A stretch of DNA of 64,000 nucleotides from an uncultured Acidobacteriota bacterium (GTDB taxonomy: Bacteria > Acidobacteriota > Thermoanaerobaculia > UBA5066 > Gp7-AA6). A program made the translations under genes and the position numbers. Positions 47,764 to 63,993 of the stretch are shown here, in pieces (position 1 is the stretch's first letter; each line of letters opens with the position of its first letter). The stretch is taken from NCBI GenBank assembly GCA_963764715.1, contig CAVXTP010000015.1:161693-225692 (forward strand), in the 5' to 3' direction. A model generated the notes under the pieces. The model was not told the DNA's origin, ran no database searches, and saw only the letters and a program-made list of their open reading frames with translations.

Positions 47764-47768
47764 GGGCG

Positions 47769-47845: not shown

Positions 47846-48130
47846 GGCCGCAAATTCTGGGACTCTGGACCGCGCCGAACTCTCCCGCGCGAGTCCCGCA
47901 GCTTCCGCCACGATGCGACGTTTAGCATCCTGACCGGGTCGAGGCTTTCGGCACGTTCGCTCATCCGCGTGCTCAGGTTTAAGACGCCGCAATCATCTCA
48001 GCGGTTCCCATCCTCTGATGGATCTAGAGTTGCAGGCGCCGAACTCCTGCCGCACGCCGGTTGTCGCCGAGAAGAGTAGCGTGCCCTCGGGGACGACCGC
48101 CGTCGAAACGCGGCCCGCGGTTGGGCTCCC

Positions 48131-48159
48131 TTGCATGCTGGTCCCACTCCTCCTATACT
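48131..48159 (+). promoter_or_regulatory. Putative sigma70 promoter
   Basis: TTGCAT-17bp-TATACT, 7 nt before ATG 48167. Confidence 0.6.
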
Positions 48160-48166
48160 GAACCGG

Positions 48167-49025: not shown

Positions 49026-49202
49026 ACTCGTCGATCTCGCGGTCGGCCGCCTGGCTTATTGGTCTCGACCTCGATCCCTCGTGGCACAGCATCAGCGAGT
49101 GGGCAATCGGTCCTCACGGCTGACCTCGGCGCGCTGCTCGCCCCGGCCGGCCTGGCTCACATGCTGGCCGGGGCCACGTGAAATTAGATAGTGCTTCGGT
49201 CC

Positions 49203-49277
49203 GTCTACGGGTGGCGGGGCAGCGGCGAGCTCCGAGGCGAAGCCGAGGAGCGAGTCCGCTGCACCCGCGGGTTAGGC
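49203..49277 (-). repeat. attC with a 1-bp deletion in the core
   Basis: gtctac gggtggcgggg...gttaggc. Confidence 0.88.
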
Positions 49278-50071: not shown

Positions 50072-50147
50072 GCCTAACGGGTGGCGGGTCAGCGGCGCGT
50101 GAAGAGCCGAAGGCGATAAACGCGTCCGCTGCACCCGCGGGTTAGGC
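50072..50147 (-). repeat. attC, intact
   Basis: gcctaac...gttaggc, 76 bp. Confidence 0.95.
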
Positions 50148-50172
50148 GGCGGCTGATCGTGATGCCGAGATC

Positions 50173-50418
50173 TCACACGCAATCCCCGTGGAAGACGCAT
50201 GCGAACCACAAGGCCGTGAAGATGAACGCTGCGCCGAAACCGACTGCAGTGCACACGGACGCCACCGCGAGAGCAGTGGCTGACCGGCGGCTCAGACGCC
50301 AAGCCATGATCGCCATTATCGCGCCAGGAAGCCACGTGAGTCCCAGGATCGCTACCCATGTCCCCACGTAGGGCGCGACGGGATCCCATACCGGCGACGC
50401 GTCGCCTGCTGCTTTCAC
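50173..50418 (-). CDS. Small membrane protein, possibly 5'-truncated
   Basis: Two hydrophobic helices ending before the attC. Confidence 0.5.
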   Translation of the reverse strand: MKAAGDASPVWDPVAPYVGTWVAILGLTWLPGAIMAIMAWRLSRRSATALAVASVCTAVGFGAAFIFTALWFACVFHGDCV

Positions 50419-50419
50419 G

Positions 50420-51826
50420 TCAGGCTCGCGGCTGGGCGGTGGTCGCTTCGAAGAGCTTCACCAAGTTGCTCTCCGCCGCGGCCCGAAACCGTGTGATGCG
50501 CTCCCGAGCGTCAAGGACATCCGGAGCATCGCGATAGCGCGCGATTTCGCCCAGCGGATTGAGCCGTGTTTCCTTCGCCCAGCTCGCAAGCGTCGGGTGC
50601 GCTGCCCGAGCCCGTTCGTTCGCAAGAGTCGCGAGGAACGCCGACAGGTAGTCCCTGATCGAATCCCAGTAGGGGATGGGCGGGCAGATGCGGTTCTTCT
50701 CGTTGTCGCTCTCGACCGTGGCCTCGAGCACGCCCAGCATGGCGAACTGATAGCAGACAAAACCCCACAGGAACGGCTGTATCGTCACTCGGCCGGCCTC
50801 GAAGATCGGCCGAAGCGGAGGGCTCGCCAGCCCTCTCGACGCGCAGTGGACATGCACCGTCCTCTCGTTCGTCGGGACGCGGCCCTTGTCCAGGACGATC
50901 TCGTCACGCTCGATCCTCAGCACGTGACCCAGGCGGACCACGTCCTCGATCCGGCGCAGAAGCCCCCGCTCGGCCTCGCTGACCACCCCTCCGTGGAACA
51001 TCGTCGGCGTCACGCCGGGATCGATGCGAAGAAGGAACTCTTCCTCTTCGAGGCGCGCAACGAGATCCCGGACCGAAGCCGCCGTCGCCATGGCCTCGAA
51101 CTGGATCGCCATGCCCCGATAGAAGTTCGGAAGCAGCTCGTGGGGCTGGTGAAACCGGCGGTTCAGCCACCACGCGTCGCGCGGCCTGATCCAGCGGATC
51201 GCCGGCGCGGGGACGCCCTGTTCCAGCAACCATACGCACGCGTCCAGGGCAGTCTTGCCCGCACCGATGATGACGAAGCGCTCGGGGCGCTCCCTCAGCT
51301 GCGCGATCTCGCCTGCGGGCAGGCAGCGAACGCCGTCGGCCACCTCGAAGGGAGGCGCGCTAGTGGCGGGAATGGCGCCTTCGAGATAGGTCGTGTCCAC
51401 GATCTTCTTCAGCACGCGCACCCTGCACGACCGTTTCGCGAGCCTCGAGACGAAACGGCCCTCCCCGACGTAGTCGCTCGAAGGGAAATAGCCGACGCGG
51501 CCGCTGGGCAGAAAGACGCGATGCATCACGTGCTCGTAATAGGCTCGAATCTCGTCCGCGCCGGCGAGCTCGTAGTAGCCGACATTCGTCCCGGCCACGT
51601 CGCGAGCGTCATGTCCGAGCGGCACGGAGCCGACTCCATAGAAAGCGGAAGGCTGATGGAGACGGACGTAGGGGTACGCGTCGATCCAGTGCCCGCCGGG
51701 AGCGAGGCGGCGATCGACGATCGTGATCGTCGCGCCGGAATGCGCGAGGAGCGCGTCGGTAAACGCCATCCCCGCTGCCCCGGCACCGACCACGAGATAG
51801 TCTGTTTCGAGCTCTTCGTCGGCCAC
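50420..51826 (-). CDS. FAD/NAD(P)-binding oxidoreductase
   Basis: VVGAGAAG, PGGHW, IIGAGKT. Confidence 0.85.
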   Translation of the reverse strand: MADEELETDYLVVGAGAAGMAFTDALLAHSGATITIVDRRLAPGGHWIDAYPYVRLHQPSAFYGVGSVPLGHDARDVAGTNVGYYELAGADEIRAYYEHVMHRVFLPSGRVGYFPSSDYVGEGRFVSRLAKRSCRVRVLKKIVDTTYLEGAIPATSAPPFEVADGVRCLPAGEIAQLRERPERFVIIGAGKTALDACVWLLEQGVPAPAIRWIRPRDAWWLNRRFHQPHELLPNFYRGMAIQFEAMATAASVRDLVARLEEEEFLLRIDPGVTPTMFHGGVVSEAERGLLRRIEDVVRLGHVLRIERDEIVLDKGRVPTNERTVHVHCASRGLASPPLRPIFEAGRVTIQPFLWGFVCYQFAMLGVLEATVESDNEKNRICPPIPYWDSIRDYLSAFLATLANERARAAHPTLASWAKETRLNPLGEIARYRDAPDVLDARERITRFRAAAESNLVKLFEATTAQPRA

Positions 51827-51855
51827 CCGACGATGATATTCACTTCGGAAGGCGC

Positions 51856-51885
51856 GCCCAACGGACGACGCGTCAGCGGCCAGCC
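51856..51885 (-). repeat. Half attC remnant
   Basis: gcccaac ggacgacgcgtcagcggc. Confidence 0.55.
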
Positions 51886-51938
51886 AGAACAAGGGGCGCT
51901 GAGCCTCCTGCCCTCACGCAACCATGCGCCTTCCGGCC

Positions 51939-52017
51939 GCCTAACGGGTGGCGGGTCAGCGGCGAGCGAGCCCGAGCAAAGCGAGGGACGCGAGTCCGCT
52001 GCACGCGCATGTTAGGC
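51939..52017 (-). repeat. attC, intact, 79-bp variant
   Basis: gcctaac...gttaggc. Confidence 0.93.
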
Positions 52018-52079
52018 CGCCGCCTAGCCGGCAGCGGGCGGTCGGAACCCCACGCGGCGGGAGCAATCGGACGGTGGCA

Positions 52080-52982
52080 TCACGGCCCGTCCGTCGACTC
52101 GAAGAACTCTTTGGTATCGGGACGACTGAATGGGTTGCGAAAGAACGTTTCAACGGTCAGATTGAACAACGCGGGGTCCTGCCAAGGAATCATGTGGGTC
52201 GCTGCAGGGAAGATGCAGAGCTGTGCCTTTGGGAGATCATGAAATATCTGCAACGTGTGAGCATCCCGTATCACATCCTTGTCGCCCGCCATTACCAGTG
52301 TCGGTGCAGACACGCTCTTTAGTTTCTCGGCCGGAATATTCGGTTGCTTGCCCAGCAGATCCAATTGCTGCTTGTAGACCGACCACGGCTGGGACGTATC
52401 GGCCTTCTTAATCATCGCATCCACTAGCCTCTCCTGCTTCGCGACCCAGGCACGGGCCCAATCATAGGCCCCACTGGGATTCAGATTGGCACCCATGATG
52501 GCCAATTTCGCCACCTTGTCCGGATGGTTGATGGCAAGCAGCAGACCGACAATCCCGCCGTCACTCCACCCGAGCACGTACACGTCTTTCAAGCCCAGTG
52601 CTTGCAGCAAGGCGTTGGCGTCTTCAGCCATCTGCTCGTAGGTCAAGCGCCCGGCCCCCATTTCGCTCTTTCCATGACCTCGACTGTCAGCTGCGACGAC
52701 TTGGTATTGCTCGGAGAAGAACTTGATCTGATTGCCCATGGCGGAAATGCTTTGTCCGTTGCCGTGAATCTGTAACATCGCTGGACCCTTGCCATAAGTC
52801 TCAAAGTAGAGCTTGATCCCGTTAAGCTCTTGGAATCGGCCGGTGGATTCGTTGCTGCCGTAGGGAGGGTCAAACGTGGGCGGTGTCAGCGGCTCAGAGT
52901 TCACCGATCCAGACGAAACGTTGAGCAGGCTCGACGCCAACAACAGAGTCCAGAGTGGGTTCCGGCTCCTTGGAGCTCTCAT
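52080..52982 (-). CDS. Secreted alpha/beta hydrolase cassette
   Basis: DSRGHG, GWSDGG; GGAGG RBS. Confidence 0.88.
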   Translation of the reverse strand: MRAPRSRNPLWTLLLASSLLNVSSGSVNSEPLTPPTFDPPYGSNESTGRFQELNGIKLYFETYGKGPAMLQIHGNGQSISAMGNQIKFFSEQYQVVAADSRGHGKSEMGAGRLTYEQMAEDANALLQALGLKDVYVLGWSDGGIVGLLLAINHPDKVAKLAIMGANLNPSGAYDWARAWVAKQERLVDAMIKKADTSQPWSVYKQQLDLLGKQPNIPAEKLKSVSAPTLVMAGDKDVIRDAHTLQIFHDLPKAQLCIFPAATHMIPWQDPALFNLTVETFFRNPFSRPDTKEFFESTDGP

Positions 52983-53020
52983 CTTCCTCCCTCCATGAGG
53001 TTGTCGACCGTTTTCCAGCG

Positions 53021-53096
53021 GCCTAACGGGTGGCGGGTCAGCGGCGCGTGAAGAGCCGAAGGCGAGGAGCGAGTCCGCTGCACCCGCGGGTTAGGC
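53021..53096 (-). repeat. attC, intact
   Basis: Consensus repeat. Confidence 0.95.
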
Positions 53097-53402
53097 GCGC
53101 CGCCGCGTCCCGGTTGTGCGAACAACATCGAGGACTGCCTCAGGGTGCTTGGCCACGATTCTCAGAAGGATTCGGGCGCTTCCTTCCGGCTTCCGACGCC
53201 CCTGTTCCCAGTTTCTGAGCGTGCCCGCGCTGATACCCATTAGCGCCGCAAACTTCGATTGGCTGAGTCGGTAACCTTTTCGAACAGCCCGAACGTCCGG
53301 CTCATCAATCTGAAACACACGGGACGCCTTGCGCCGTCCCCGCAGAATCTCGCCACCCTCCTGGACGCTCTGGAGAAGCTCCTTGAACAGTTCTTCCTTC
53401 AT
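53091..53402 (-). CDS. HigA-like HTH antitoxin
   Basis: LSQSKFAALMGIS...NWEQGRRKP; TAA inside the attC. Confidence 0.9.
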   Translation of the reverse strand: MKEELFKELLQSVQEGGEILRGRRKASRVFQIDEPDVRAVRKGYRLSQSKFAALMGISAGTLRNWEQGRRKPEGSARILLRIVAKHPEAVLDVVRTTGTRRRA

Positions 53403-53716
53403 CGGTACTCCGTTTCGACGATCTGTCGCAATAGCTTCTTCTGCGCCGGCCCGATATCGGCCCTCTCGCTCTTCGTGAAAGCGAAGAGCATCAAGAGCCG
53501 GCTTGAGACCGGGTGCCAGAAGTAGATCACTCGACAGCCTCCGCGTTTGCCACGCCCCTTCGAACCCCAGCGAAGCTTCCGCAGCCCGCCAGTTCCCGGA
53601 ATGACGTCGCCCGCCGCCGGGCGCCGGACCAAGTGAAGCTGAAGGTCACGGTATTCATCTTGGGTCAGCAGGTCATCGATCCGCGCGGTGAACGCGCGAG
53701 TCTCAAGAATGACCAC
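53399..53716 (-). CDS. HigB/RelE-like toxin
   Basis: GDVIPGTGGLRKLRW...GKRGGCRVIY. Confidence 0.9.
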   Translation of the reverse strand: MVILETRAFTARIDDLLTQDEYRDLQLHLVRRPAAGDVIPGTGGLRKLRWGSKGRGKRGGCRVIYFWHPVSSRLLMLFAFTKSERADIGPAQKKLLRQIVETEYR

Positions 53717-53724
53717 GGTGTGGG

Positions 53725-53753
53725 ACTATACGCCAATGGCGTAATGCGGTCAA
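53725..53753 (-). promoter_or_regulatory. TA promoter with operator palindrome
   Basis: TTGACC-17bp-TATAGT; TACGCCA-T-TGGCGTA. Confidence 0.8.
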
Positions 53754-53767
53754 GGCCCCTTTAGCGC

Positions 53768-53843
53768 GCCTAACGGGTGGCGGGTCAGCGGCGAGCTCCG
53801 AGGCGAAGCCGAGGAGCGAGTCCGCTGCACCCGCGGGTTAGGC
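53768..53843 (-). repeat. attC, intact
   Basis: Consensus repeat. Confidence 0.95.
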
Positions 53844-53849
53844 GCGTCG

Positions 53850-54389
53850 TTAGTCGGATAGCCAGACATGGACCCACCCTTTCCGTGTCTTGACAAAAGC
53901 AATATCCGTCGCTTCGATCGCTCCGGTCACCAGTACTTCGTGGTCGCTCGTGAACGTAACTACTTGGCCCGGCCCGAGCTCCCCGTCCAAGCAGCAGTCA
54001 TCAAACTTCCCTGGCGCCGCCTTATCGACGAAGAGCCGCATTCGGTATTCTGATGGCCCTGCGTTCCAGACCTTCTCAAATCGCCAGGACTTCCCTTCAA
54101 GCGTGGCGACGACCAGCCACACTCTGTCACCATCCGTGAGGAGGAAGCCGTAGTCCCTCTTGCCACGAGCGGTGAAGCTACCTCTCGTGACCCCCAGGCA
54201 GCCGTCGCCGCCGTGATCAACCTGATACTGGATGTCCTCGGGCAAGTTGTCAGACTGCCTCGGCAGTGCGCCGCCGGGGAACGCCTGTGAAGCCGCCGTC
54301 CTTAGGTCGTATGGAAGAACGCACGCATCAGGCGGCCGAGGAGCGCCGGCGACGACGAACGAAAAGGCAATGAGCAGACTAGCCAGCAT
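53850..54389 (-). CDS. Secreted orphan protein, paralogue 1 of 3
   Basis: DAC...FP...EDIQYQVDHGGDGCLG...WVHVWLSD. Confidence 0.8.
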   Translation of the reverse strand: MLASLLIAFSFVVAGAPRPPDACVLPYDLRTAASQAFPGGALPRQSDNLPEDIQYQVDHGGDGCLGVTRGSFTARGKRDYGFLLTDGDRVWLVVATLEGKSWRFEKVWNAGPSEYRMRLFVDKAAPGKFDDCCLDGELGPGQVVTFTSDHEVLVTGAIEATDIAFVKTRKGWVHVWLSD

Positions 54390-54408
54390 TTGGAACTGTA
54401 GCGAACGC

Positions 54409-54484
54409 GCCTAACGGGTGGCGGGTCAGCGGCGAGCTCCGAGCCGAAGGCGAGGAGCGAGTCCGCTGCACCCGCGGGTTAGGC
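54409..54484 (-). repeat. attC, intact
   Basis: Consensus repeat. Confidence 0.95.
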
Positions 54485-54493
54485 AGCCCTTCG

Positions 54494-55063
54494 TCAGTCC
54501 GCGATCCGCACATGGATCCAACTCCCCTTGAGGAAGAAGAACGCCAGGGCCCAGGATTCGAGCTTTCCTGCGAGAATGCCTTCTCTGGCGCTGTTGACGA
54601 TAGCGAGCTCCCCGACATCCAGCGCCCCCTCTGCGGACTCCGAGCGAACGTACTTGCCTGGCTCCAGCTTCTCCGCGTATAGCCAACCGATAGGCATCGG
54701 GAACTCGTAGATCTTCTGAATCTCCCACCGGTCACGACCAAGTGCGCGCGCGACGACTAGGATCGATGACCCACTGCCGCCTCGCGCGCCGAGTAGGACT
54801 GCAATCTCCGGCGCTGCTGTATGGAAGCCCCCACCAGTGATCCCTAAGCACGCCGAGCCGCCGTGCTCCACCGAGTATTTGACATCCTCGGGATCCCAGT
54901 CCTTCGCGAACGGTAATCGATACTCCGGAAACTGTGCATCGATCTGGGCGACCAACGGCCTCGGTATCAGCCCCGCACAGGCATCAATACTGCCGCCGTC
55001 TTGAGCGAACACCGGCCTACTCGCGAACACGAGCAGCAACAGTAGGCCGATGCGAAGGATCAC
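54494..55063 (-). CDS. Secreted orphan protein, paralogue 2; in frame with the attC
   Basis: DAC...EDVKYSVEHGGSACLG...WIHVRIAD. Confidence 0.8.
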   Translation of the reverse strand: MILRIGLLLLLVFASRPVFAQDGGSIDACAGLIPRPLVAQIDAQFPEYRLPFAKDWDPEDVKYSVEHGGSACLGITGGGFHTAAPEIAVLLGARGGSGSSILVVARALGRDRWEIQKIYEFPMPIGWLYAEKLEPGKYVRSESAEGALDVGELAIVNSAREGILAGKLESWALAFFFLKGSWIHVRIAD

Positions 55064-55078
55064 TCTGCTGATCGGGCT

Positions 55079-55154
55079 GCCTAACGGGCTGCGCGTCAGC
55101 GGCGAGTGAGGAGGCGAAGCCGACGAACGAGTCCGCTGCACGCGCGTGTTAGGC
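55079..55154 (-). repeat. attC, intact
   Basis: Consensus repeat with paired arm changes. Confidence 0.95.
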
Positions 55155-55188
55155 CGCGCCAGCCGTGTCATCGGTTGAGCCTGGACAT

Positions 55189-56118
55189 CTAGTGATAGCC
55201 CCACACGAAGTCGCAGCGCGATGTGAAACCGTGGCTGAACAAGAAGTAGCCGTCCGCGTTGTGAAGGGACCTTCCGAACAGTACCTCGGACCTGCCGTCG
55301 CCATCGTAATCGCCAGCATCAACGAGCGAAAGATCAGAGCCAAGAGGCGTTACGTGTTTGCCATCGACTAGGAACATGTACGTGATCGGGTAGTCAATAC
55401 CGCTCTCAGCGGGAGGCGAACAGCCGGTCAACTCAACCGACAACAGGCCTCGACCATCCGCCGACCTGTAGGCCCGCGCGAGCTTGAGAGACCGATCGTC
55501 GCACCGGAACGAGATGGATTCCGTCTCTCCTCCCTCCTCGAGAGTGACAGGTAGGCCCGATCCCAAAAGTTGCCGGAGCTGAATAAACCTGTCTTTCAGA
55601 GTTTCCGGCGGTGGCGTATTCCTTCGCCACCGATCTGGATCCCGCCACGATTCCCCCGTCACCACGACGAGGGGTCGGACCTGGGTATTTCCAGGCCACC
55701 ATGAGGGATCGCGCGATTCGGGCGACGCCATCACGGGTGCCGGCAGCGTTGAGGACGTGATGAGCTGCAGGCCGATCGAACCATAGGATCGACCCTCTTC
55801 CGGCCGCTTGGTCACTACTTCGCCAAGCGCCTTTCCATCGCTTACAACCGTCCACCGGATCGGGCTCGGATACCAGTTTGGACTCTCCCGAAGCGATGGC
55901 AGATCGTGCGCCTGTGCATGAACTATCTCCCAGACGCCATTCCTCTTCTCGAAAACGACCCTAACCCTCGGGAAGGGTGCGCCTCCTTCCGCATTTGCCT
56001 CCTCGGCATTGAGGCCACCTCGCTCGAAAAAGCCTACGTACGTCGTTTCGAGATCCCGTGCCTCAGGGACGCCAGCGCGGATTCCGACGTGAAGTACCAG
56101 GGCGGCAAGCCAAGTCAT
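55189..56118 (-). CDS. Secreted hypothetical protein with a DYDGDG motif
   Basis: DAGDYDGDGRSEVLF. Confidence 0.75.
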   Translation of the reverse strand: MTWLAALVLHVGIRAGVPEARDLETTYVGFFERGGLNAEEANAEGGAPFPRVRVVFEKRNGVWEIVHAQAHDLPSLRESPNWYPSPIRWTVVSDGKALGEVVTKRPEEGRSYGSIGLQLITSSTLPAPVMASPESRDPSWWPGNTQVRPLVVVTGESWRDPDRWRRNTPPPETLKDRFIQLRQLLGSGLPVTLEEGGETESISFRCDDRSLKLARAYRSADGRGLLSVELTGCSPPAESGIDYPITYMFLVDGKHVTPLGSDLSLVDAGDYDGDGRSEVLFGRSLHNADGYFLFSHGFTSRCDFVWGYH

Positions 56119-56132
56119 AACTTCTGAGCGCG

Positions 56133-56208
56133 GCCTAACGGGTGGCGGGTCAGCGGCGAGCGCCGTAGCGAAGCGTAGGCGCGAGTCCGCTGCACCCGCG
56201 GGTTAGGC
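56133..56208 (-). repeat. attC, intact
   Basis: Consensus repeat. Confidence 0.95.
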
Positions 56209-56224
56209 GCCTGCGACGGGGGCA

Positions 56225-56971
56225 CTACGGCCACTGAAGACCGAGCATTTTCGCGAAGAAGACGGCCACCTGCCCACGAGTCACGAAGGCATTCGGACAG
56301 TAGTTCTGATCTCCGCAGCCAGCCGTCACTCCTGCCGCCGCGAAGGCCTCTATGAACTGATAGTAAGGATTCGACGGGGGCACATCGAGAAACGTCTGCC
56401 CAACTGGCTCGCTAACCTGGAGCTCATACTGCAACGCCGCTCCGGACAACGAGGTTGTCGCGTCCCCCGCCATCGTTCTGGCGCTCAGCACCAACGTCGT
56501 GTTTACGTTGTCAACCCTGAATGGTGGCGTGACTGCCGCCATCGAGGATACACAGGGTATTCCCTGGTCCCCAACTGCGGTAGCCAAAAGAAATGGCGAG
56601 GTGCCGTCGAAATTCGCCACGTACAGCTCGAGCACCACGCCGTTCGGTACGGTCGCGTTGCAGTAATCCAATTCGATTCCGGTGACCAGCGCCCCACCGG
56701 GTAGGTGTGGGTTCGCGATGAAGCGACCATCTGGAACCGTCGAGAACCGGGACATGATGACACCGCCGGACCGGAACTGGTCATCGTAGGTAGTACCCGT
56801 GCTGATCGGCGAGAACTCTGCGGCCCCCAAGCGATACACGGACACGTTTGGTCCGAATGTGGTTGGATCCATTGCGTGGCTGCGAGCATGCCTAACGTCT
56901 ACTTGCGCGAGCCCAAGTGACGAAAGAACGCAGAGACTCGAAATGCCGATCCAAACGATCTTTGACCTCAT
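56225..56971 (-). CDS. Secreted protein with C-terminal SLH domain
   Basis: FLDVPPSNPYYQFIEA...YCPNAFVTRGQ; AAGGAG RBS. Confidence 0.85.
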   Translation of the reverse strand: MRSKIVWIGISSLCVLSSLGLAQVDVRHARSHAMDPTTFGPNVSVYRLGAAEFSPISTGTTYDDQFRSGGVIMSRFSTVPDGRFIANPHLPGGALVTGIELDYCNATVPNGVVLELYVANFDGTSPFLLATAVGDQGIPCVSSMAAVTPPFRVDNVNTTLVLSARTMAGDATTSLSGAALQYELQVSEPVGQTFLDVPPSNPYYQFIEAFAAAGVTAGCGDQNYCPNAFVTRGQVAVFFAKMLGLQWP

Positions 56972-57033
56972 TGCTTCGACTCCTTAGGTTCCGGATCGGT
57001 CAGAACCAGCTGACCACCAAGACTCTTGCGGGC

Positions 57034-57109
57034 GCCTAACGGGTGGCGGGTCAGCGGCGAGTGACGAGCCGAAGGCGAGGAGCGAGTCCGCTGCACCCGC
57101 GGGTTAGGC
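57034..57109 (-). repeat. attC, intact
   Basis: Consensus repeat. Confidence 0.95.
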
Positions 57110-57113
57110 AGCG

Positions 57114-57689
57114 TCATTGCTCTACCTTGTGTTTCTCTGGCTTGACCTCGCCAAGACGGCGTCCCGTAGGAAGAGGAATGAGCGGCTGCAACGGGCGACT
57201 TTGCGACGGGGGGCTGATGAGCCACCACTCTGTCTGGCGTATGGCGGCCTCGGCTGCGAAATAGAGGTCGCCAATCTCGTACCTCCCGAGATCGGGGGGA
57301 CAGGCGTTCTGAAGAATGTCACCCGCGGAGCTCGAGACGGAGAAACCCTCGTTAAATAAGCAGTCGTAGGGAGGACGGCACAGCGGGGGAAGGTTAGCCA
57401 TTCTGGTGAAGACATAATCGGTCAAGGCCTTGGCCACGACTCCTCTGTATGACCCGTCGGGCATAAACGGAACCCCCTTGCAGACCAGAGCCGCCCTTCC
57501 ATCTGGCCAGATGTCAAGGCTGAAAGAATTAGCCGACGACGAACTAGTTAGAGACGCCATACTTGGCCCGAGTCGTAAGGTCACGAAAGAGACCGATCCC
57601 GTTTCGTCAAGAGGTGCCCGGAACGAGCCCGAGACCACTAGGCCAGCGAACACGGAAAAGCAGACGGAGCTCAGGCTAGAGCTGGCCAT
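57114..57689 (-). CDS. Secreted hypothetical protein
   Basis: Fills the cassette; hydrophobic N-terminus. Confidence 0.7.
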   Translation of the reverse strand: MASSSLSSVCFSVFAGLVVSGSFRAPLDETGSVSFVTLRLGPSMASLTSSSSANSFSLDIWPDGRAALVCKGVPFMPDGSYRGVVAKALTDYVFTRMANLPPLCRPPYDCLFNEGFSVSSSAGDILQNACPPDLGRYEIGDLYFAAEAAIRQTEWWLISPPSQSRPLQPLIPLPTGRRLGEVKPEKHKVEQ

Positions 57690-57702
57690 GTCTCTACGCG
57701 CT

Positions 57703-57778
57703 GCCTAACGGGTGGCGGGTCAGCTGCGGGCGCCGTAGCGAAGCGTAGGCGCGAGTCCACTGCACCCGCGGGTTAGGC
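57703..57778 (-). repeat. attC, intact
   Basis: Consensus repeat. Confidence 0.95.
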
Positions 57779-57869
57779 GGGCGGCTACTCACCGGGGCCG
57801 ACATAGAACTGCCCGACTAACGCGATCGGGTTGAATGGCGCCACCGACGAACGCCAGCCGCGCACTTCC

Positions 57870-58667
57870 TCAGGGCTCCGGCGCTGAAGGTTGCTTCGTC
57901 GCCGACAGAGTTCCCGAGGACAGGCCTTGGCAATCGGTTCCGCCCCACGATCCGGCAGCACTCAGGCCATCCTCGCTGACTGTCAGCAGCAAACCGACCG
58001 TGCCGGAACAGGGGCTGAATTCATAGGCGGTGAGCTGAACTACATCACTCCCCGAGCCCAGGAGATCACCCACCACCCCCTGTAAGACGGCTCCCGCACG
58101 CGGAAGCGCAGCACTCCCAGTGACCGCCGCGCCGTGTTGAACGAGCGTGACGAGTGCCGAGGCGTCCGTGCCGCTATGAAGAGTGACATCCCAAGAGCCC
58201 GTGACATTTGGGCTTATCGAGGTGCCGCCCGCGGTCGATAGATTGGCGGCAAAAAGACTGGCGATGAAGGCCCCGTTACAGTCCGAGCCACTGAACGTGC
58301 CTCCAAACGTGCGGTAATCCGAGCTGATGTTCATGATCCCCGTTCCAGAGCCGGGGCATGGGGCCTGAATCGTCAGACTGAACTCGAGATGCTGGCCCGT
58401 AACGGTGCCGGTGACGGGACCGATGCCCCCGTCCTGAACGGCGAGGAGTCCGGTTACGCTTGATACCGTCTGTACCAAGGAAAGTGTCGCCGCGGCCACG
58501 CGCAGCTGCGGAAACTCCATGAACACGTACCAGGACCCAGTCAGGGTACTCGCGCTCCCGCTCCGATCGGCCAGTACGACAGGCTGTCTTGGAGACTGAG
58601 CTCCTGCCGGCGTGATGGTCAGAACACCAAACAGGACAGTAGCCAGACACCTTGGGCTTCCGCGCAC
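57870..58667 (-). CDS. Secreted protein with two repeated beta domains
   Basis: AGGAGG-GTG start; repeat TGSW...LVQ...VTG...PC.G...G.DC twice. Confidence 0.75.
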   Translation of the reverse strand: MRGSPRCLATVLFGVLTITPAGAQSPRQPVVLADRSGSASTLTGSWYVFMEFPQLRVAAATLSLVQTVSSVTGLLAVQDGGIGPVTGTVTGQHLEFSLTIQAPCPGSGTGIMNISSDYRTFGGTFSGSDCNGAFIASLFAANLSTAGGTSISPNVTGSWDVTLHSGTDASALVTLVQHGAAVTGSAALPRAGAVLQGVVGDLLGSGSDVVQLTAYEFSPCSGTVGLLLTVSEDGLSAAGSWGGTDCQGLSSGTLSATKQPSAPEP

Positions 58668-58804
58668 AGCGAACCTCCTGACCGATTGCTCGATTTCGGC
58701 AACTACTCTACGGTCGCGGCCACCCAAGCGTCATGATGCGCTTTCACCACAAGTGACTTATCCCGCAGGAAGGCCGACTCGACGCTCAATGCTCCGCCAC
58801 GCCC

Positions 58805-58880
58805 GCCTAACGGGTGGCGGGTCAGCGGCGAGCTCCGAGCCGAAGGCGAGGAGCGAGTCCGCTGCACCCGCGGGTTAGGC
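58805..58880 (-). repeat. attC, intact
   Basis: Consensus repeat. Confidence 0.95.
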
Positions 58881-58895
58881 CACGGCAACCAATGC

Positions 58896-59414
58896 CTACT
58901 CATGCGATTTCCGGAACGGTATTGGCTCGGACTTGAGCTTCACGACCGGGATGCTGAGGTTCGGGTACTTGTGACGCAGAAATGACTTGCGCTGCGAGCT
59001 CAACTGCTCGGCATCATCGTTGTGGTAGGTAACGACGAACCGATAGTCCCGATCGGGATCAAGCCCGTACGCCTCCGACCCATCGATTCTTAGCCTTACG
59101 CGTTGCGGCGCGAGAATGTCGATCTCTGTTCCGAACAACTCCTCGCCCGCGTCCTTATCGCCTCTGAGCATCTGGAAATCGGATTCTGATGGCGAAGGAC
59201 AACTCGCGCGCGGGCCGAAATGCCCTACTGGCACTCCACGGTCATCCTGGACCTCAACCTCCACGTAGCACCCCAGGGTAGTCCGCGGCGTCAAGAGTAC
59301 GAGCGTTGAACCTTCCGCCACGAGAAGAACTTGTAGGAATCGACCTCTCACGACCTGCGCGCGCAACTCGAGCGTACCCATGATTCCGAGTGCGACGGCA
59401 AGTAGCGCCGGCAT
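58896..59414 (-). CDS. Hypothetical exported protein
   Basis: Fills the cassette. Confidence 0.7.
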   Translation of the reverse strand: MPALLAVALGIMGTLELRAQVVRGRFLQVLLVAEGSTLVLLTPRTTLGCYVEVEVQDDRGVPVGHFGPRASCPSPSESDFQMLRGDKDAGEELFGTEIDILAPQRVRLRIDGSEAYGLDPDRDYRFVVTYHNDDAEQLSSQRKSFLRHKYPNLSIPVVKLKSEPIPFRKSHE

Positions 59415-59427
59415 GCTAGTTTCCGTG

Positions 59428-59503
59428 GCCTAACGGGTGGCGGGTCAGCGGCGAGCCCCGTAGCGAAGCGTAGGGGCGAGTCCGCTGCACCCGCGGGTTA
59501 GGC
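59428..59503 (-). repeat. attC, intact
   Basis: Same variant as 63431. Confidence 0.95.
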
Positions 59504-59516
59504 GGCTGGCCCAACA

Positions 59517-59900
59517 TTAGTTTCTGCGCCACGGAAGCGGACCCGGCGTGGAGAGGATCACAGGCTGATCAAAAGAGAGATTTAACGCGATAACCAGCGG
59601 TCGTGCCAGCCGCTCCTTGGTAATCACAAACGGCCCAACACGCGTATCGACAAAACCCGACCCGGTTGCGAGGATCTCGTACTTGGCTCCATATTCAGCC
59701 GTGAACAAGGCATCGCCGGTGGAATCCGTCACGCGTCCCCAAATTGGCTCCTCGCCTGAGTGGCCGGCACGAAACGCGGCGAGCACTATCCCAGGAACCG
59801 CGCGGCAATCTGCGTCGAGGACGCGCACGAGGAGTCGGGGCGGCTCGCTTGCCGGACCGCGTAACAAGAACGCGGTAACAAGCGCGAGTTCAGTCAACAT
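59517..59900 (-). CDS. Carboxypeptidase-regulatory-like domain protein (cassette B, copy 1)
   Basis: VPG...TDSTG...GF; same protein as 63520..63903. Confidence 0.75.
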   Translation of the reverse strand: MLTELALVTAFLLRGPASEPPRLLVRVLDADCRAVPGIVLAAFRAGHSGEEPIWGRVTDSTGDALFTAEYGAKYEILATGSGFVDTRVGPFVITKERLARPLVIALNLSFDQPVILSTPGPLPWRRN

Positions 59901-59914
59901 GTGTATCTCCAGCC

Positions 59915-59990
59915 GCCTAACGGGTGGCGGGTCAGCGGCGAGCTCCGAGGCGAAGCCGAGGAGCGAGTCCGCTGCACCCGCGGGTTAGGC
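59915..59990 (-). repeat. attC, intact
   Basis: Consensus repeat. Confidence 0.95.
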
Positions 59991-59997
59991 GGCCTCA

Positions 59998-60552
59998 CTA
60001 ATCGCTCTCCGACGAGGTGAACATCCTCTGGGATCGACACGCTGCTGACTGTCCAGCTGGCACCCTCGAGCGTGAGCGTAACGGTATCTGAACCTCCCGA
60101 GGCATGTCGCCGATTGTTCGACACCGGGCAGCTTCGCCACGTCCAAGCGTTGACAGTTGCGCTGCCGGACCATGCTCCCGCTGGCGGCTCGAGCTCCAAG
60201 ACAGTCGTCTGACCGGGAAACGCTTTAACAACAGGCGGCGGCGCGACCGGCTTGCGACATCCCGGCTATCGCGTCAAGCCGGTCATCGACATCCACCACA
60301 ACGGGTACCTCGGCTGCCACCGAAACCAAGTCAAGCCTGAGCCTTGAGTCGTCCCGCGTAGCGCGCCAACACGACAGATTCCGAATCGGACGAGGTCACC
60401 GCGGAGACGGCAGCCGCCACGATTGGCCGCTGGGAGGCTGGCAGCGGCAACGGAGAACCCCACGAGCCAAATCGACTTGGGGCCTGGGCCTGCGATGCGC
60501 ACGCGCTGGCCATTAGGCATAGCCCCACAAGCCACGGACCTCGATTGAGGAC
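59998..60552 (-). pseudogene. Lipoprotein homologous to 28897..29484, with frameshifts
   Basis: SACAS...FGSWG...VVLARYAG, then RLDL...DVD and FPGQTTVLE...VTLTLEGASW in another frame. Confidence 0.7.
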
Positions 60553-60628
60553 GCCTAACGGGTGGCGGGTCAGCGGCGAGCCCCGAAGCGGAGCGCAGGG
60601 GCGAGTCCGCTGCACCCGCGGGTTAGGC
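60553..60628 (-). repeat. attC, intact
   Basis: Same variant as 62955. Confidence 0.95.
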
Positions 60629-60635
60629 CACGCCA

Positions 60636-61023
60636 TCAGCCAAGGCGCCAAGTCACCGTAACCCTAAGCCACACGGCTACTGGCTCGCCCTCCAGCGTGG
60701 CAGGTTTGTAGCCCCACTGGCGAGCAGCGAGCACCGCCTGCCGATCCATGCGCATCGTTCACGCTCTCCATCACAACGACGTCTTGAACAATCCCCTCGC
60801 GACTCACGAGGAGCTTCATGACGACGATGCCTTGGTTGGACGTGTCACGAAGTGCTGGTGGCCACACCGGGTCCACGCGCTTCGAGATAACGGGGGCAAC
60901 AACCCGCGCGACATCATCGTGCCACTGGCCGTCTTGAGCCTGATAGGCAAGGACGCTCTTCGGTTCAGGCGCCGTGGTCGCACAGCCAATCAAGAATCCT
61001 GCGATGACCGCAGCGCTGAACAT
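60636..61023 (-). pseudogene. TonB C-terminal domain lipoprotein (cassette A, copy 1; +1 bp near 60750)
   Basis: Matches 63038..63424 except gatccatGcgcatc. Confidence 0.8.
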
Positions 61024-61029
61024 AGCGTG

Positions 61030-61105
61030 GCCTAACGGGTGGCGGGTCAGCGGCGAGTGACGAGCCGAAGGCGAGGAACGAGTCCGCTGCACCCGCGTGT
61101 TAGGC
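61030..61105 (-). repeat. attC, intact
   Basis: Consensus repeat. Confidence 0.95.
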
Positions 61106-61112
61106 CGCTCGC

Positions 61113-61619
61113 TCATTGCCGTGGCTGATCCTTCGCCACCTGATCACGCACCCACGTGACCCAGGCGTCATCCGAGCCATGCACTTGCTCATTAAGCGGT
61201 GACAGCGGATCCCATTCAGCCGTGTACTGCCCATCTCGAGTCCGAAGGATCACGAGAAACATGCCTCCCTTGCGGTAATTCGCCGCCCAGCACGTCCCCC
61301 CTCTGCCCCCTGGCCTCACGAACTTGTACGGAGGATCGTGGTCGTTGAAATCGTCGGCTGACGTCAGATGTCCGCCCAAGGCGACTTGCCTCGGTACGGC
61401 CTTCCCTTTGAGAACCTCGATCACGTCGAACTCGATTTCGCCATCCGACGACCCTGACGGATCTGGCTCGCGAAGGTACTTTGCCGCCGACACAAGCAGA
61501 ATCGTGTCTGCTGCTCGGACTAGGTAGACCGGATCGACCTCGCCCACCCTCTGGCACGGGAACAACACACCGGCAGAGAAAACGGCAGCCGCAAGAACTG
61601 ACGCCACCGCGCTGAACAA
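61113..61619 (-). CDS. Secreted hypothetical protein, in frame with the attC, no own ATG
   Basis: Hydrophobic stretch directly after the attC; FDVIEVLKG. Confidence 0.72.
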   Translation of the reverse strand: MFSAVASVLAAAVFSAGVLFPCQRVGEVDPVYLVRAADTILLVSAAKYLREPDPSGSSDGEIEFDVIEVLKGKAVPRQVALGGHLTSADDFNDHDPPYKFVRPGGRGGTCWAANYRKGGMFLVILRTRDGQYTAEWDPLSPLNEQVHGSDDAWVTWVRDQVAKDQPRQ

Positions 61620-61622
61620 GCG

Positions 61623-61698
61623 GCCTAACGGGTGGCGGGTCAGCGGCGAGCGCCGTAGCGAAGCGTAGGCGCGAGTCCGCTGCACCCGCGTGTTAGGC
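61623..61698 (-). repeat. attC, intact
   Basis: Consensus repeat. Confidence 0.95.
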
Positions 61699-62259
61699 GA
61701 CCCGGTCAAAGCAAAAATCCGCATTGAGGTGAGGCCGAAATTCGTAGTGATACCTGATGATCTCATGCAGCGGTGTATCTGGAGCGACCGGGTCCGCTGA
61801 GCTTGGCTCAGAGTCGAGCAAGTCCATGGCTCGATCCTGGGCCTTGAGCTCCTCTATTACTTCGTCTGCAGTTCGATCCGCCGGCAGGTATCGCTCGCCC
61901 CGAAACCACGTTCCATCTGACTCGAGCTTTCGCACGTAAATTGAGGAAGCTGCTCTCGCCGTAAGCCTGGCGAGCACTTTGTGAACACACACGCCTTCGA
62001 TAATCAAGGGTCGGCCCGCAGATCGGACGGCGGCGGCCAGCTCAGCGTACCGAATCTCTTCAACGTACCGGCCCCGGCCCTTCTCAAGAAACTCATCCAG
62101 CTCAAGATGCGATGCGCCGAGCTCCTGTGCGAGTTGCGCTGCCAGATACGACTTTCCCGACCCGTCGAAGCCATCGCACGTGATGATGCTCCCCGCGACC
62201 AGAGGTGTAGCGGCTGCGACAGCGCCGCGCAGAGCATTGACGTCACGCGTGGTGATCAC
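61693..62259 (-). CDS. P-loop kinase-like protein
   Basis: DGFDGSGKS, LIIEG; TAA inside the attC. Confidence 0.75.
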   Translation of the reverse strand: MITTRDVNALRGAVAAATPLVAGSIITCDGFDGSGKSYLAAQLAQELGASHLELDEFLEKGRGRYVEEIRYAELAAAVRSAGRPLIIEGVCVHKVLARLTARAASSIYVRKLESDGTWFRGERYLPADRTADEVIEELKAQDRAMDLLDSEPSSADPVAPDTPLHEIIRYHYEFRPHLNADFCFDRVA

Positions 62260-62278
62260 GATGCTGTTTCTTCGGGTC

Positions 62279-62354
62279 GCCTAACGGGTGGCGGGTCAGC
62301 GGCGAGCTCCGAGCCGAAGGCGAGGAGCGAGTCCGCTGCACCCGCGTGTTAGGC
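62279..62354 (-). repeat. attC, intact
   Basis: Consensus repeat. Confidence 0.95.
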
Positions 62355-62363
62355 GGCCTGCCG

Positions 62364-62927
62364 CTAGTCTGAGAGCCACACATTGATCCAACCCTTTGAC
62401 CCAAGGCAATACGCAAATGCCCAGGCCTCCGTCTTGCCCGTGATTACGCACGGCCTTCGGCTTGTGAATGACCGCACCTCTCCCGGCCGGAAGCCCTCGC
62501 CCTCGGCATCAACAACCTCGGACCGCTCGTACTTGCCTGGCTTCCCCCGCTCCACGAAGAGGCCGCCGAGGAAATCGAACTCTGCCAGTGTCGTGATTTG
62601 CCACTTCTGTTTACGCGCAAGCGCTGCGAGCACGAGCATCTTGCCTTCTCCCTCCGGTCTGATGATGAGGGCGAGGTCCATTTGGCCGTCTCCGTCATAG
62701 TCTCCCAGCGCAGCCCCCAAACAGCCGCTTCCGCCATGCTCGAGGTTGTACGCAATATCTTCCTCTGAACTGTCGGCCGCGAGCGGAAGACGGTGGTGAG
62801 GGAACCGCTCCTTCAAGGCCTTCGCCAGAGACGCCGGAATGAGGCTTCCGCATGCGTCAGCCTGCGCCACCTCAGCAGGAGCTAGACCACAGAACCCGAG
62901 TGTGAGCAGCGCAGCGAACCCTGCCAC
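62364..62927 (-). CDS. Secreted orphan protein, paralogue 3; in frame with the attC
   Basis: DAC...EDIAYNLEHGGSGCLG...GDYDGDG...WINVWLSD. Confidence 0.8.
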   Translation of the reverse strand: MAGFAALLTLGFCGLAPAEVAQADACGSLIPASLAKALKERFPHHRLPLAADSSEEDIAYNLEHGGSGCLGAALGDYDGDGQMDLALIIRPEGEGKMLVLAALARKQKWQITTLAEFDFLGGLFVERGKPGKYERSEVVDAEGEGFRPGEVRSFTSRRPCVITGKTEAWAFAYCLGSKGWINVWLSD

Positions 62928-62954
62928 CGAGCGCCGCCACCTTGCGCCCTGGCC

Positions 62955-63030
62955 GCCTAACGGGTGGCGGGTCAGCGGCGAGCCCCGAAGCGGAGCGCAG
63001 GGGCGAGTCCGCTGCACCCGCGGGTTAGGC
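62955..63030 (-). repeat. attC, intact
   Basis: Consensus repeat. Confidence 0.95.
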
Positions 63031-63037
63031 CACGCCA

Positions 63038-63424
63038 TCAGCCAAGGCGCCAAGTCACCGTAACCCTAAGCCACACGGCTACTGGCTCGCCCTCCAGCGT
63101 GGCAGGTTTGTAGCCCCACTGGCGAGCAGCGAGCACCGCCTGCCGATCCATCGCATCGTTCACGCTCTCCATCACAACGACGTCTTGAACAATCCCCTCG
63201 CGACTCACGAGGAGCTTCATGACGACGATGCCTTGGTTGGACGTGTCACGAAGTGCTGGTGGCCACACCGGGTCCACGCGCTTCGAGATAACGGGGGCAA
63301 CAACCCGCGCGACATCATCGTGCCACTGGCCGTCTTGAGCCTGATAGGCAAGGACGCTCTTCGGTTCAGGCGCCGTGGTCGCACAGCCAATCAAGAATCC
63401 TGCGATGACCGCAGCGCTGAACAT
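63038..63424 (-). CDS. TonB C-terminal domain lipoprotein (cassette A, copy 2, intact)
   Basis: LIGC lipobox; PVWP...QGIV...AVLAARQWGYKPA..GEPV. Confidence 0.85.
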   Translation of the reverse strand: MFSAAVIAGFLIGCATTAPEPKSVLAYQAQDGQWHDDVARVVAPVISKRVDPVWPPALRDTSNQGIVVMKLLVSREGIVQDVVVMESVNDAMDRQAVLAARQWGYKPATLEGEPVAVWLRVTVTWRLG

Positions 63425-63430
63425 AGCGTG

Positions 63431-63506
63431 GCCTAACGGGTGGCGGGTCAGCGGCGAGCCCCGTAGCGAAGCGTAGGGGCGAGTCCGCTGCACCCGCGGG
63501 TTAGGC
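63431..63506 (-). repeat. attC, intact
   Basis: Consensus repeat. Confidence 0.95.
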
Positions 63507-63519
63507 GGCTGGCCCAACA

Positions 63520-63903
63520 TTAGTTTCTGCGCCACGGAAGCGGACCCGGCGTGGAGAGGATCACAGGCTGATCAAAAGAGAGATTTAACGCGATAACCAG
63601 CGGTCGTGCCAGCCGCTCCTTGGTAATCACAAACGGCCCAACACGCGTATCGACAAAACCCGACCCGGTTGCGAGGATCTCGTACTTGGCTCCATATTCA
63701 GCCGTGAACAAGGCATCGCCGGTGGAATCCGTCACGCGTCCCCAAATTGGCTCCTCGCCTGAGTGGCCGGCACGAAACGCGGCGAGCACTATCCCAGGAA
63801 CCGCGCGGCAATCTGCGTCGAGGACGCGCACGAGGAGTCGGGGCGGCTCGCTTGCCGGACCGCGTAACAAGAACGCGGTAACAAGCGCGAGTTCAGTCAA
63901 CAT
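63520..63903 (-). CDS. Carboxypeptidase-regulatory-like domain protein (cassette B, copy 2)
   Basis: Same protein as 59517..59900. Confidence 0.75.
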   Translation of the reverse strand: MLTELALVTAFLLRGPASEPPRLLVRVLDADCRAVPGIVLAAFRAGHSGEEPIWGRVTDSTGDALFTAEYGAKYEILATGSGFVDTRVGPFVITKERLARPLVIALNLSFDQPVILSTPGPLPWRRN

Positions 63904-63917
63904 GTGTATCTCCAGCC

Positions 63918-63993
63918 GCCTAACGGGTGGCGGGTCAGCGGCGAGCTCCGAGGCGAAGCCGAGGAGCGAGTCCGCTGCACCCGCGGGTTAGGC
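63918..63993 (-). repeat. attC, intact
   Basis: Consensus repeat. Confidence 0.95.

Follow-up and report, generated by a model that had tools for sequence, protein, structure and literature searches.

At the 3′ end of a 64,000-nucleotide stretch of DNA from an uncultured Acidobacteriota bacterium (GenBank assembly GCA_963764715.1, contig CAVXTP010000015.1; G000:C15:161693-225692 in our own numbering of genomes and contigs, referred to below as the window) lies a cassette array with its genes on the minus strand. The array is the distal part of a sedentary chromosomal integron, and the attC recombination sites that separate its cassettes keep one of their three reading frames open. We propose that each attC is spanned by a short open reading frame (ORF), which we call a relay ORF, that these relay ORFs couple the translation of successive cassettes, and that secreted proteins encoded in frame with attC would take the attC peptide as a cleavable leader; we put the probability of this reading at roughly 0.62. 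A preliminary description of the same DNA had suggested that the attC peptide acts as an extended signal n-region. That suggestion is now strengthened by four comparative signals, namely the bias of fused ORFs towards exported proteins, the loss of ATG starts from them, the phasing of cassette junctions to the attC frame and an old gene that stays open through a decayed attC. The same description expected expression to depend on which cassette sits upstream, and this holds less than was claimed: nearly every attC offers the same frame and each cassette brings a relay start of its own, so the system appears standardised and expression less dependent on the upstream neighbour.

The attC sites carry a fixed open frame

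In an integron array, single promoterless genes in one orientation alternate with attC sites, imperfect palindromes whose cores read RYYYAAC and GTTRRRY. In the window, the active part extends from 50072 to 63993 on the minus strand and holds 19 strict attCs (GCCTAAC...GTTAGGC) in a regular-expression map, 18 of them 76 nt long and one 79 nt long. Folded as RNA, 20 window attCs give hairpins of -34 to -45 kcal/mol.

On the coding strand attC contains stops in two frames (the TAA in the R″ box; a TGA, and the TAG of R′) and leaves the third open. This open frame (frame 2) reads ...PNPRVQRTRSS..SPLTRHPLG and ends exactly at the crossover core, which is read x-TTA-GGC. It is open in 196 of 201 strict copies and, with a looser finder based on Hamming distance, in 322 of 331 copies from 25 sequence stretches in 19 genomes; in the window the looser detector finds 20 attCs, and frame 2 is open in all 20. 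Bases 14-16 of the site form an in-frame GTG, ATG or TTG in 313 of the 331. Where the length of attC departs from 76 nt, the difference is a multiple of three in 14 of 24 sites (p=0.01).

An in-frame ATG is found at bases 8-10, 14-16 and/or 59-61 in 38 of 194 attCs of 76 nt, from G009, G061 and other genomes, and the pair at 14-16 and 59-61 reflects a compensated replacement of G-C by A-T in the stem. ATG-bearing attCs are not preferentially located upstream of in-frame cassettes: the 35 of these 38 that were scored are distributed 10, 14 and 11 over the frames, and among 21 scored cases with ATG at base 59 the next cassette is in frame in four.

Cassette ends are phased to the attC frame

For comparison we collected 294 inter-attC segments, 174 of which hold one sense ORF of at least 80 residues covering 70% or more of the segment. 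As the gene start we used the first ATG, GTG or TTG. Clustering of the proteins at 35% identity over half the length gave 137 clusters, each entered into the counts through one representative.

The 3′ ends of the cassettes avoid the attC frame. Gene stops lie in the open frame of attC in 10 of 137 clusters, as compared with 65 and 62 in the other phases (chi-square p=8e-10). Of 59 phase-2 cassettes, 42 have an attC-frame ATG or GTG no more than 2 nt from the stop, versus 435 of 1442 long genes elsewhere in G000 that served as the baseline (p=4e-10); the baseline for this ATGA-type start is as high as 30% because a single base before TGA, A or G, decides. Among phase-0 cassettes with their own stop, 11 of 27 have such a start within 5 nt, against 47 of the 1442 genes (p=1e-9). 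Starts near the stop in a non-attC frame, counted as a control, number 0/59 and 3/27 for the two groups. In 38 more cassettes the gene terminates at the TAA of R″, 7 nt ahead of the in-frame GTG or ATG of attC.

A corresponding signal is seen at the 5′ ends. Relative to the gene start, 47 of 50 out-of-frame cassettes have an attC-frame stop between -30 and +12 nt, versus 18 of 30 cases of a frame-matched control (p=3e-4), while in the other relative frame the same interval gives 16/30 versus 7/50 (p=3e-4). Overlaps of the ATGA type at this junction amount to 32/50 versus 11/30. The ORFs that cross attC have the layout of coupling ORFs, with a start at or overlapping the upstream stop and an end at or near the downstream start. 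Start codons at the upstream stop, together with attC-frame stops at the next start, argue that this frame has been selected as a translated frame. When a de novo attC finder was applied to three loci of the family, a second genus included, the junction signals were recovered in 11/20 versus 1/22 and in 12/14 versus 3/14 cases; the second genus (G003) on its own gave 7/10 versus 0/12.

Free-standing relay ORFs can be followed individually in the window, all on the minus strand. One of 49 codons (56968-57117) spans attC 57034-57109; its ATG at 57117 overlaps the stop TGA 57116-57114 (ATGA), and its own TGA at 56970-56968 overlaps ATG 56971 of the next gene, which encodes an SLH-domain protein (again ATGA). 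Another, of 36 codons (56115-56225), spans attC 56133-56208, opens with GTG 56225 overlapping TAG 56227-56225 (TAGTG) and closes with TGA 56117-56115 overlapping ATG 56118 of the next gene (ATGA). A third (59416-59517) spans attC 59428-59503: its ATG 59517, a duplicate of ATG 63520, overlaps TAA 59519-59517, and its TAG 59418-59416 ends 1 nt before ATG 59414 of the following gene. At attC 53021-53096 the relay terminates within an ATGA that also contains ATG 52982. Overlaps between a relay start and the upstream stop (ATGA, TGATG, TAATG or TAGTG) are present in the window at 61113, 57114, 63038, 63520, 59517 and 56225. The three window cassettes of cytoplasmic type, which encode a P-loop kinase-like protein (AAA_33/SKI-like), RelE with a helix-turn-helix (HTH) protein and a flavin adenine dinucleotide (FAD) oxidoreductase, are all out of frame with attC.

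In-frame cassettes form open fusions with attC

In 27 of the 38 clusters that are in frame with attC, the ORF is open through the site. We scored proteins as exported-like by a hydropathy-window rule of our own, a hydrophobic segment within 40 residues, and by this rule 25 of the 27 fusions are exported-like, versus 52 of 80 out-of-frame cassettes (p=0.006). In-frame cassettes without a hydrophobic segment mostly have a stop between attC and their start. The exported-like fusions are also poor in starts of their own: 3 of 25 fused cassettes have an ATG at the hydrophobic core or ahead of it, as against 44 of 56 out-of-frame cassettes (p=2e-8), and for any ATG, GTG or TTG there the counts are 12 of 25 and 53 of 56, respectively (p=5e-6). 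Fused sequences with no start before or in the n-region include ...HPLG-GRSAVVLLLLLALGNGC, ...HPLG-RLRLLSLLVAAAC and ...HPLG-RAITGLVLLVTLALRSPLQA. A Sec or lipoprotein signal peptide combines an n-region of positive charge with a hydrophobic core of about 8-15 residues, followed by an AXA-like site or a lipobox Cys. By eye, lipobox-like ends (...AGC, ...STAC, ...NGC) can be recognised among the fused sequences and the public sequences described below. The fused state appears to be limited to proteins with an N-terminal signal peptide, lipobox or membrane segment, most of them lacking an ATG of their own.

Five of the 18 window cassettes are in frame with attC, or six if a broken one is included; six window ORFs are open through an attC, and all six have a hydrophobic N-terminal segment. 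The preliminary description had pointed to several genes, named here by the coordinate at which they end, as exported proteins in frame with the attC peptide that have neither an ATG before the hydrophobic core nor an obvious ribosome-binding site (RBS). For 54494, 61113 and 62364 the ORFs are indeed open from attC, with no stop before SPISRVILRIGLLLLLV, RLFSAVASVLAAAV and GQGARWRRSVAGFAALL, and no ATG precedes the core; the sole start-like codons before the cores are GTG 55063, TTG 61619 and GTG 62927. By the hydropathy rule, the fusions are likewise exported-like, both in the window and in nearly all the clusters. The statement about the RBS has to be amended for GTG 62927, a possible internal start of 62364 with AAGGTGG ending 9 nt upstream. 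A fourth gene, said to end at about 59998, turned out not to be intact, the in-frame ORF after attC 60553-60628 running into a stop at 60333-60331.

The fusion is most easily followed in 62364 (62364-63038, minus strand). Its ATG at 63038 overlaps the TGA 63040-63038 of the upstream TonB_C lipoprotein gene (TGATG), and the relay that begins there meets no stop and becomes MAWPNPRVQRTRPCAPLRGSPLTRHPLGGQGARWRRSVAGFAALL...; the ORF passes through attC 62955-63030 (minus strand), read in frame as PNPRVQRTRPCAPLRGSPLTRHPLG, and then through GQGARWRRS and the signal-like VAGFAALLTLGFCGLAPAEVAQA into an FG-GAP-like mature part, for which the FG-GAP match is weak and below the Pfam cut-off. Upstream of 61113, the R″ TAA (61695-61693) of attC 61623-61698 (minus strand) is the stop of the P-loop kinase-like gene (61693-62259). 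The fused ORF (61113-61709, minus strand) is open from TTG 61709, or from GTG 61685 within attC, into RLFSAVASVLAAAVFSAGVLFPC, with TTG 61619 as a possible internal start, and its TGA stop (61115-61113) is overlapped by ATG 61116 (ATGA), which opens the next relay ORF. In the case of 54494 (54494-55171, minus strand), the ORF starts at ATG 55171, 18 nt past the upstream stop TAG 55191-55189, and leads via attC 55079-55154 (minus strand, from the regular-expression map) and SPISR into VILRIGLLLLLVFASRPVFAQ; GTG 55063 is a possible internal start.

The TonB_C lipoprotein cassette itself (63038-63520, minus strand; TonB_C E=8e-14) shares the frame of attC 63431-63506 and possesses an ATG of its own at 63424 (MFSAAVIAGFLIGC); the preceding relay start, ATG 63520, overlaps the upstream TAA 63522-63520 (TAATG). 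In the broken cassette 59991-60552, the fused ORF (60331-60636, minus strand) runs from ATG 60636 through attC 60553-60628 and VLNRGPWLVGLCLMASAC... to TGA 60333-60331. The remainder of this cassette is in other frames, and one piece, 59894-60265, crosses the next attC in the open frame. A Pfam search gave nothing above cut-offs for 54494, 61113, the old gene 39384 or the pieces of cassette 59991-60552.

Signals of the twin-arginine translocation (Tat) pathway carry the motif S/T-R-R-x-F-L-K before the hydrophobic core. The attC peptide, with QRTRSS, has no RR pair and does not match it, and no consistent motif was found across the cassettes; an RR after attC is added by some cassettes only, for example as RWRRS in 62364.

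An old gene open through a decayed attC

Gene 39384 (39384-40001, minus strand), which the preliminary description had counted among the in-frame cases, does stay in frame through its attC. From ATG 40001 it reads a decayed site at about 39900-39975 as PETRARRPRSSAAPPGSPLTRRPFG and continues into SGQSRKCFGGLVLVAIVAV...; the R″ box of the remnant is now GCCTGAG and the R′ box GTTCGGC. No ATG, GTG or TTG lies between the remnant and the hydrophobic core. Orthologues with 64-67% identity are found in G016, G052, G009 and G027a, each in the decayed distal region of its array. In all five copies the frame crosses the attC remnant uninterrupted, with an ATG just upstream of it, and four of the five have no start between remnant and core, G027a having gained an ATG before the core. 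In G009 most of the 3′ half of the remnant is deleted, with the frame kept. As a conserved gene that could be started only upstream of the remnant, 39384 is the strongest single case for a putatively translated leader derived from attC.

attI and the first array position

We inferred the position of attI from a conserved motif that ends with GTTAGGC. It offers an ATG 0-3 codons before TTA-GGC, in the same frame as attC, in 8 of 10 arrays. In three of these attI reads ATG-TTA-GG[C/T], the G of ATG being the G of the core. The attI of G016 contains a 22-codon ORF that starts 20 nt after the intI stop and runs across the crossover with the codons GCG-TTA-GGC. The attI ORF meets the start of the first cassette gene through an ATGA overlap in G016 and G061; for G009 the observation covers just the stop of this ORF, which is part of a GTGA, and in G000 the attI ORF is fused to the first cassette. 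ORF-11 in the attI1 site of class 1 integrons has a Shine-Dalgarno (SD) sequence of its own, GGAG, 8 nt upstream. In G016, G-rich stretches lie before the attI ATGs.

Since the attI ATG is in the same frame, start-less cassettes would be completed to genes at the first position too. A start-less in-frame cassette inserted at attI would begin with M-L-G- or M-Q-A-L-G-, followed by its own K/R residues and hydrophobic core.

Public proteins with the relay peptide

Using the 49-residue relay peptide as a query against longer proteins (E<=0.001), we obtained 34 matches from 43 candidates. The attC peptide is N-terminal in 30 of the 34 and C-terminal in four. By eye, 25 of the 30 N-terminal cases run on into a signal-peptide- or lipobox-like segment, mostly without a Met in between. 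One match, P0026, an orthologue of gene 62364, is preceded by other upstream sequence yet remains in frame. Gene-calling programs mainly retain the leader where they have no better start, so the public set is biased towards start-less genes; this bias does not explain the exported-like character of the proteins.

Some ORFs reach their 3′ end in the attC frame with no stop codon. These are extended at the C-terminus by the attC peptide and terminate after a few codons of the next cassette. Examples are the window piece 59894-60265 (minus strand) and the public proteins P0016, P0025, P0030 and P0038.

Proposed mechanism and alternatives

Under the mechanism we propose, each cassette would place an attC-frame start on or beside its own stop (as ATGA, GTGA, TGATG, TAATG or TAGTG) or end on the TAA of R″. 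A terminating ribosome would re-initiate there and translate the short relay ORF across the stable attC hairpin, melting the hairpin as it goes. Ahead of an out-of-frame cassette the relay would stop on or next to the gene start, often in an ATGA, and pass the ribosome on. Ahead of an in-frame cassette it would meet no stop and run into the gene, adding an Arg-rich leader of about 25-35 residues that may serve as a long, positively charged n-region and be removed together with the signal peptide. At the first position attI would provide an ATG in the same frame (ATG-x-x-TTA-GGC or ATG-TTA-GGC). We give even odds to a more general form of this idea, that the recombination junction is a standard coding joint at which attI and every attC offer one frame and a start, with cassettes adapted to it at both ends.

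Several points weigh against relay translation. The case for it comes from comparative sequence statistics, and a query for RNA or DNA sequencing runs over window positions 54400-63600 gave no entry. The genomes compared are relatives, and clustering at 35% identity reduces their shared ancestry without removing it; the class of exported-like proteins is defined by our own rule. SD-like tetramers are present at -18 to -4 in 12 of 41 overlapping relay starts and in 20 of 137 mid-gene controls, and the internal GTG of attC is enclosed in the attC hairpin. The pattern was not seen in 13 loci of other phyla with at least three attCs each (1/8 versus 9/28 and 1/6 versus 6/20), a sample whose 8 and 6 open-frame observations are too few to call it absent there. 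In class 1 integrons, deletion of attC changed a downstream reporter little in most of 10 cassettes, according to Carvalho et al. (2024, PMC11511950). Finally, clusters are distributed over the attC frames as 38 (in frame), 37 and 59 of 134, with no in-frame enrichment: cassettes share the frame of the attC peptide about as often as chance predicts.

This last observation, together with the 5-6 in-frame cassettes among 18 in the window, is what would be expected if these were ordinary cassette genes with GTG or TTG starts of their own, the attC peptide were never made and the fusion were an ORF-finder artefact. The three internal start-like codons of the window genes fit the same explanation, for they precede the cores at places where paralogues or homologues have ATG or GTG. 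The signal peptides that would begin at GTG 55063 and GTG 62927 match the length of those of ATG-started paralogues (53850 and one in G037); TTG 61619 aligns with ATG 63424 of the TonB_C cassette (MFSA...), and a G009 homologue has GTG there. Genome-wide SD use is modest as well, at 23% versus a background of 15% in a crude scan that took the first ATG of long ORFs as the start, so the absence of an RBS is uninformative. What such ordinary genes do not account for is the shortage of ATG in fused exported cassettes, 13 of 25 of which have no start of any kind before the core, the exported-like character of nearly all fusions, and the phasing of starts and stops at both cassette ends to the attC frame and not to the other frame. 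They also leave aside the old gene, open through its decayed attC in five species and lacking an internal start in four of them. We therefore hold this alternative to be unlikely. Pure chance, with the fusions as an ORF-finder product of the single open frame, was considered and dropped on account of start loss, export bias and end phasing. The internal GTG and TTG codons of the three intact window genes are located where paralogues have ATG, so both start routes may operate: 54494, 61113 and 62364 may be initiated at GTG 55063, TTG 61619 and GTG 62927 alongside the fusion.

A second alternative restricts expression of start-less cassettes to the first array position, where attI supplies the ATG; internal copies would be silent stock, and the stop and start phasing would serve out-of-frame cassettes only. 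The in-frame attI ATG of 8 in 10 arrays would give short, normal-looking leaders (M-L-G-, M-Q-A-L-G-), and the window array is distant from intI, which is on another contig. However, every upstream cassette gives a relay start, and a ribosome in the relay frame must then read into an in-frame gene. The old gene, moreover, sits deep in the decayed part of the array, retains 64-67% identity across five species and carries its ATG just before the remnant, and 30 N-terminal fusions are found among public gene calls. This explanation seems to us improbable, more so than ordinary internal starts. That the start-less in-frame cassettes are decaying pseudogenes, phased by shared ancestry, is hardly credible: the window does contain the broken in-frame cassette 59991-60552 and a frameshifted TonB_C copy (60664-61023), and the intI of G000 is frameshifted, but the fused ORFs remain uninterrupted across 70% or more of their cassettes, with 116-322 residues and an outlier of 480 (G100b 6175), out-of-frame cassettes keep their starts (53/56), and the signals hold with one representative per cluster, with internal frame controls and in the second genus G003.

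Relation to known systems

Elements of the proposed relay are known from class 1 integrons. The attI1 site has been described as carrying ORF-11, ORF-17 and ORF-18, and ORF-11 as passing ribosomes by termination-reinitiation to cassettes that have no initiation region (Hanau-Bercot et al. 2002, as cited in PMC8876359). The attI sites studied here resemble ORF-11 and ORF-18 in containing a small ORF across the crossover that takes its stop from the inserted cassette. ORF-11, as described there, stops at the TAG of GTTRRRY, whereas the frame here reads TTA-GGC and on to an ATGA or into the gene. A second difference is that the same frame is repeated here at every attC, with the cassettes phased at both ends.

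Termination-reinitiation on a short ORF inside an attC has been reported to relieve the mRNA hairpin (Jacquier et al. 2009, as cited in PMC8876359). The likeness is close: a ribosome re-initiates inside attC, melts the stem-loop, and the next cassette is translated. That account, as cited, concerns single class 1 attCs, whereas here length and frame are fixed throughout a family (322/331 attCs), and start and stop phasing in 137 cassette clusters and N-terminal fusions are found in addition.

The nearest precedent for the fusions is GCUF1-OXA-28 of Pseudomonas aeruginosa, in which an ORF continues through the gcuF1 attC; according to Hocquet et al. (2012, PMC3375312), the product is exported, its internal signal peptide is cleaved, and the mature OXA-28 derived wholly from the fusion. 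As here, an exported protein is reached by an ORF that runs in frame through an intact attC. On that description the GCUF1-OXA-28 fusion is accidental and costly, with an extension of 102 residues, whereas the peptide here is short and basic, the genes are mostly without ATG, and 27 clusters are involved. In class 1 arrays the expression of downstream cassettes has also been found to depend on upstream translation (Carvalho et al. 2024, PMC11511950). The mechanism put forward by those authors is mRNA stability, whereas the sequence pattern here points to direct hand-over of ribosomes through attC.

In the literature that we searched we found no description of an attC family with a fixed frame, of phased cassettes or of start-less cassettes for exported proteins. 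Judged by its sequence, the system represents a novel, systematic form of a mechanism so far described for individual cases in class 1 integrons.

Organisation of the array and its genome setting

The identification of the array as part of an integron rests on an attC array, an intI gene in the same genome, and attI; the integron integrase is a tyrosine recombinase with an extra domain. The window ends at the end of its contig, and another contig of G000 (C17) opens with 10 more attCs followed by intI. The N-terminal, middle and C-terminal parts of this intI (C17:9404-10630, minus strand) are in three different frames, and the gene is therefore probably inactivated. An intact IntI of 398 residues with the IntI-specific extra domain is encoded in G016. 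In 10 of 10 related arrays intI is co-directional with the cassettes, the 'inverted integrase' layout. Relatives of IntI are found in 593 sequence stretches from many phyla, and the closest named ones, with 79-80% identity, come from metagenome-assembled genomes (MAGs) of Acidobacteria/Acidobacteriota. The 76-nt attC family is present in 49 of 101 genomes of the family and 31 of 39 of the genus, in a tally that takes in an unpublished genome, G060, absent from all other counts.

Decayed attC arms reach back to about 39.3 kb, and along the array stretch the GC content goes from 0.70-0.72 to 0.60-0.64. In the fossil part (39345-49277) the attC arms have 4-6 changes and the cores are lost (e.g. 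GCCTGAG, GTTCGGC); its GC content is above that of the active part. Since at least one gene of the fossil part, 39384, is conserved in five species, this end of the array is older than their divergence. A C-terminus resembling the SLH domain is common to the cassette proteins 56225-56971, in the active part, and 42182-42961, in the fossil part (both minus strand), with the shared pattern ...QFIEA...GVTAGC...CP...VTRGQ.AVF.AK.LGL.WP.

Two pairs of duplicated cassettes are present in the active part. Positions 59504-59914 are paired with 63507-63917, and 60629-61029 (401 nt) is paired with 63031-63430 (400 nt). The TonB_C copy in the second pair (60664-61023) is 1 nt longer and has a frameshift after ...VMESVNDA, and is thus probably a pseudogene. 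One cassette (53091-53716, minus strand) holds two genes, a RelE-family toxin (53399-53716) and an HTH/MqsA-like antitoxin (53091-53402), the latter using the TAA of the attC R″ box as its stop.

Very short cassettes, some 207-214 nt long, recur many times in G016 and G009 in all three attC frames (with peptides such as GRWGRNEVPRVPPSCPGLF), with sense positions 16263, 23471 and 26786 in G016 and 19260, 19833 and 22906 in G009. They are probably non-coding or carry something besides a sense ORF, and the requirement for an ORF of at least 80 residues places them outside our counts.

Implications

A frame-standardised relay of ribosomes through attC would explain, for one lineage, how promoterless cassettes, many of them without an RBS, are translated deep in long chromosomal arrays. 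If our proposal is true, the whole array would be translated as a chain of coupled ORFs, and start-less fragments for secreted proteins and lipoproteins would become complete genes only by recombination. Cassettes need not then be self-contained.

There are consequences for the handling of such sequences. Start-less cassettes are annotated either as unusual long proteins with an Arg-rich N-terminus, as in the 30 public cases, or are cut at an internal Val or Leu, and relay ORFs of 35-50 codons are overlooked. In cassette metagenomics, ORFs beside attC that look 'incomplete' may be complete in context. In this family attC would be selected for a coding function in addition to its role in recombination, and selection on attC as coding sequence would constrain models of attC evolution and of the birth of cassettes.

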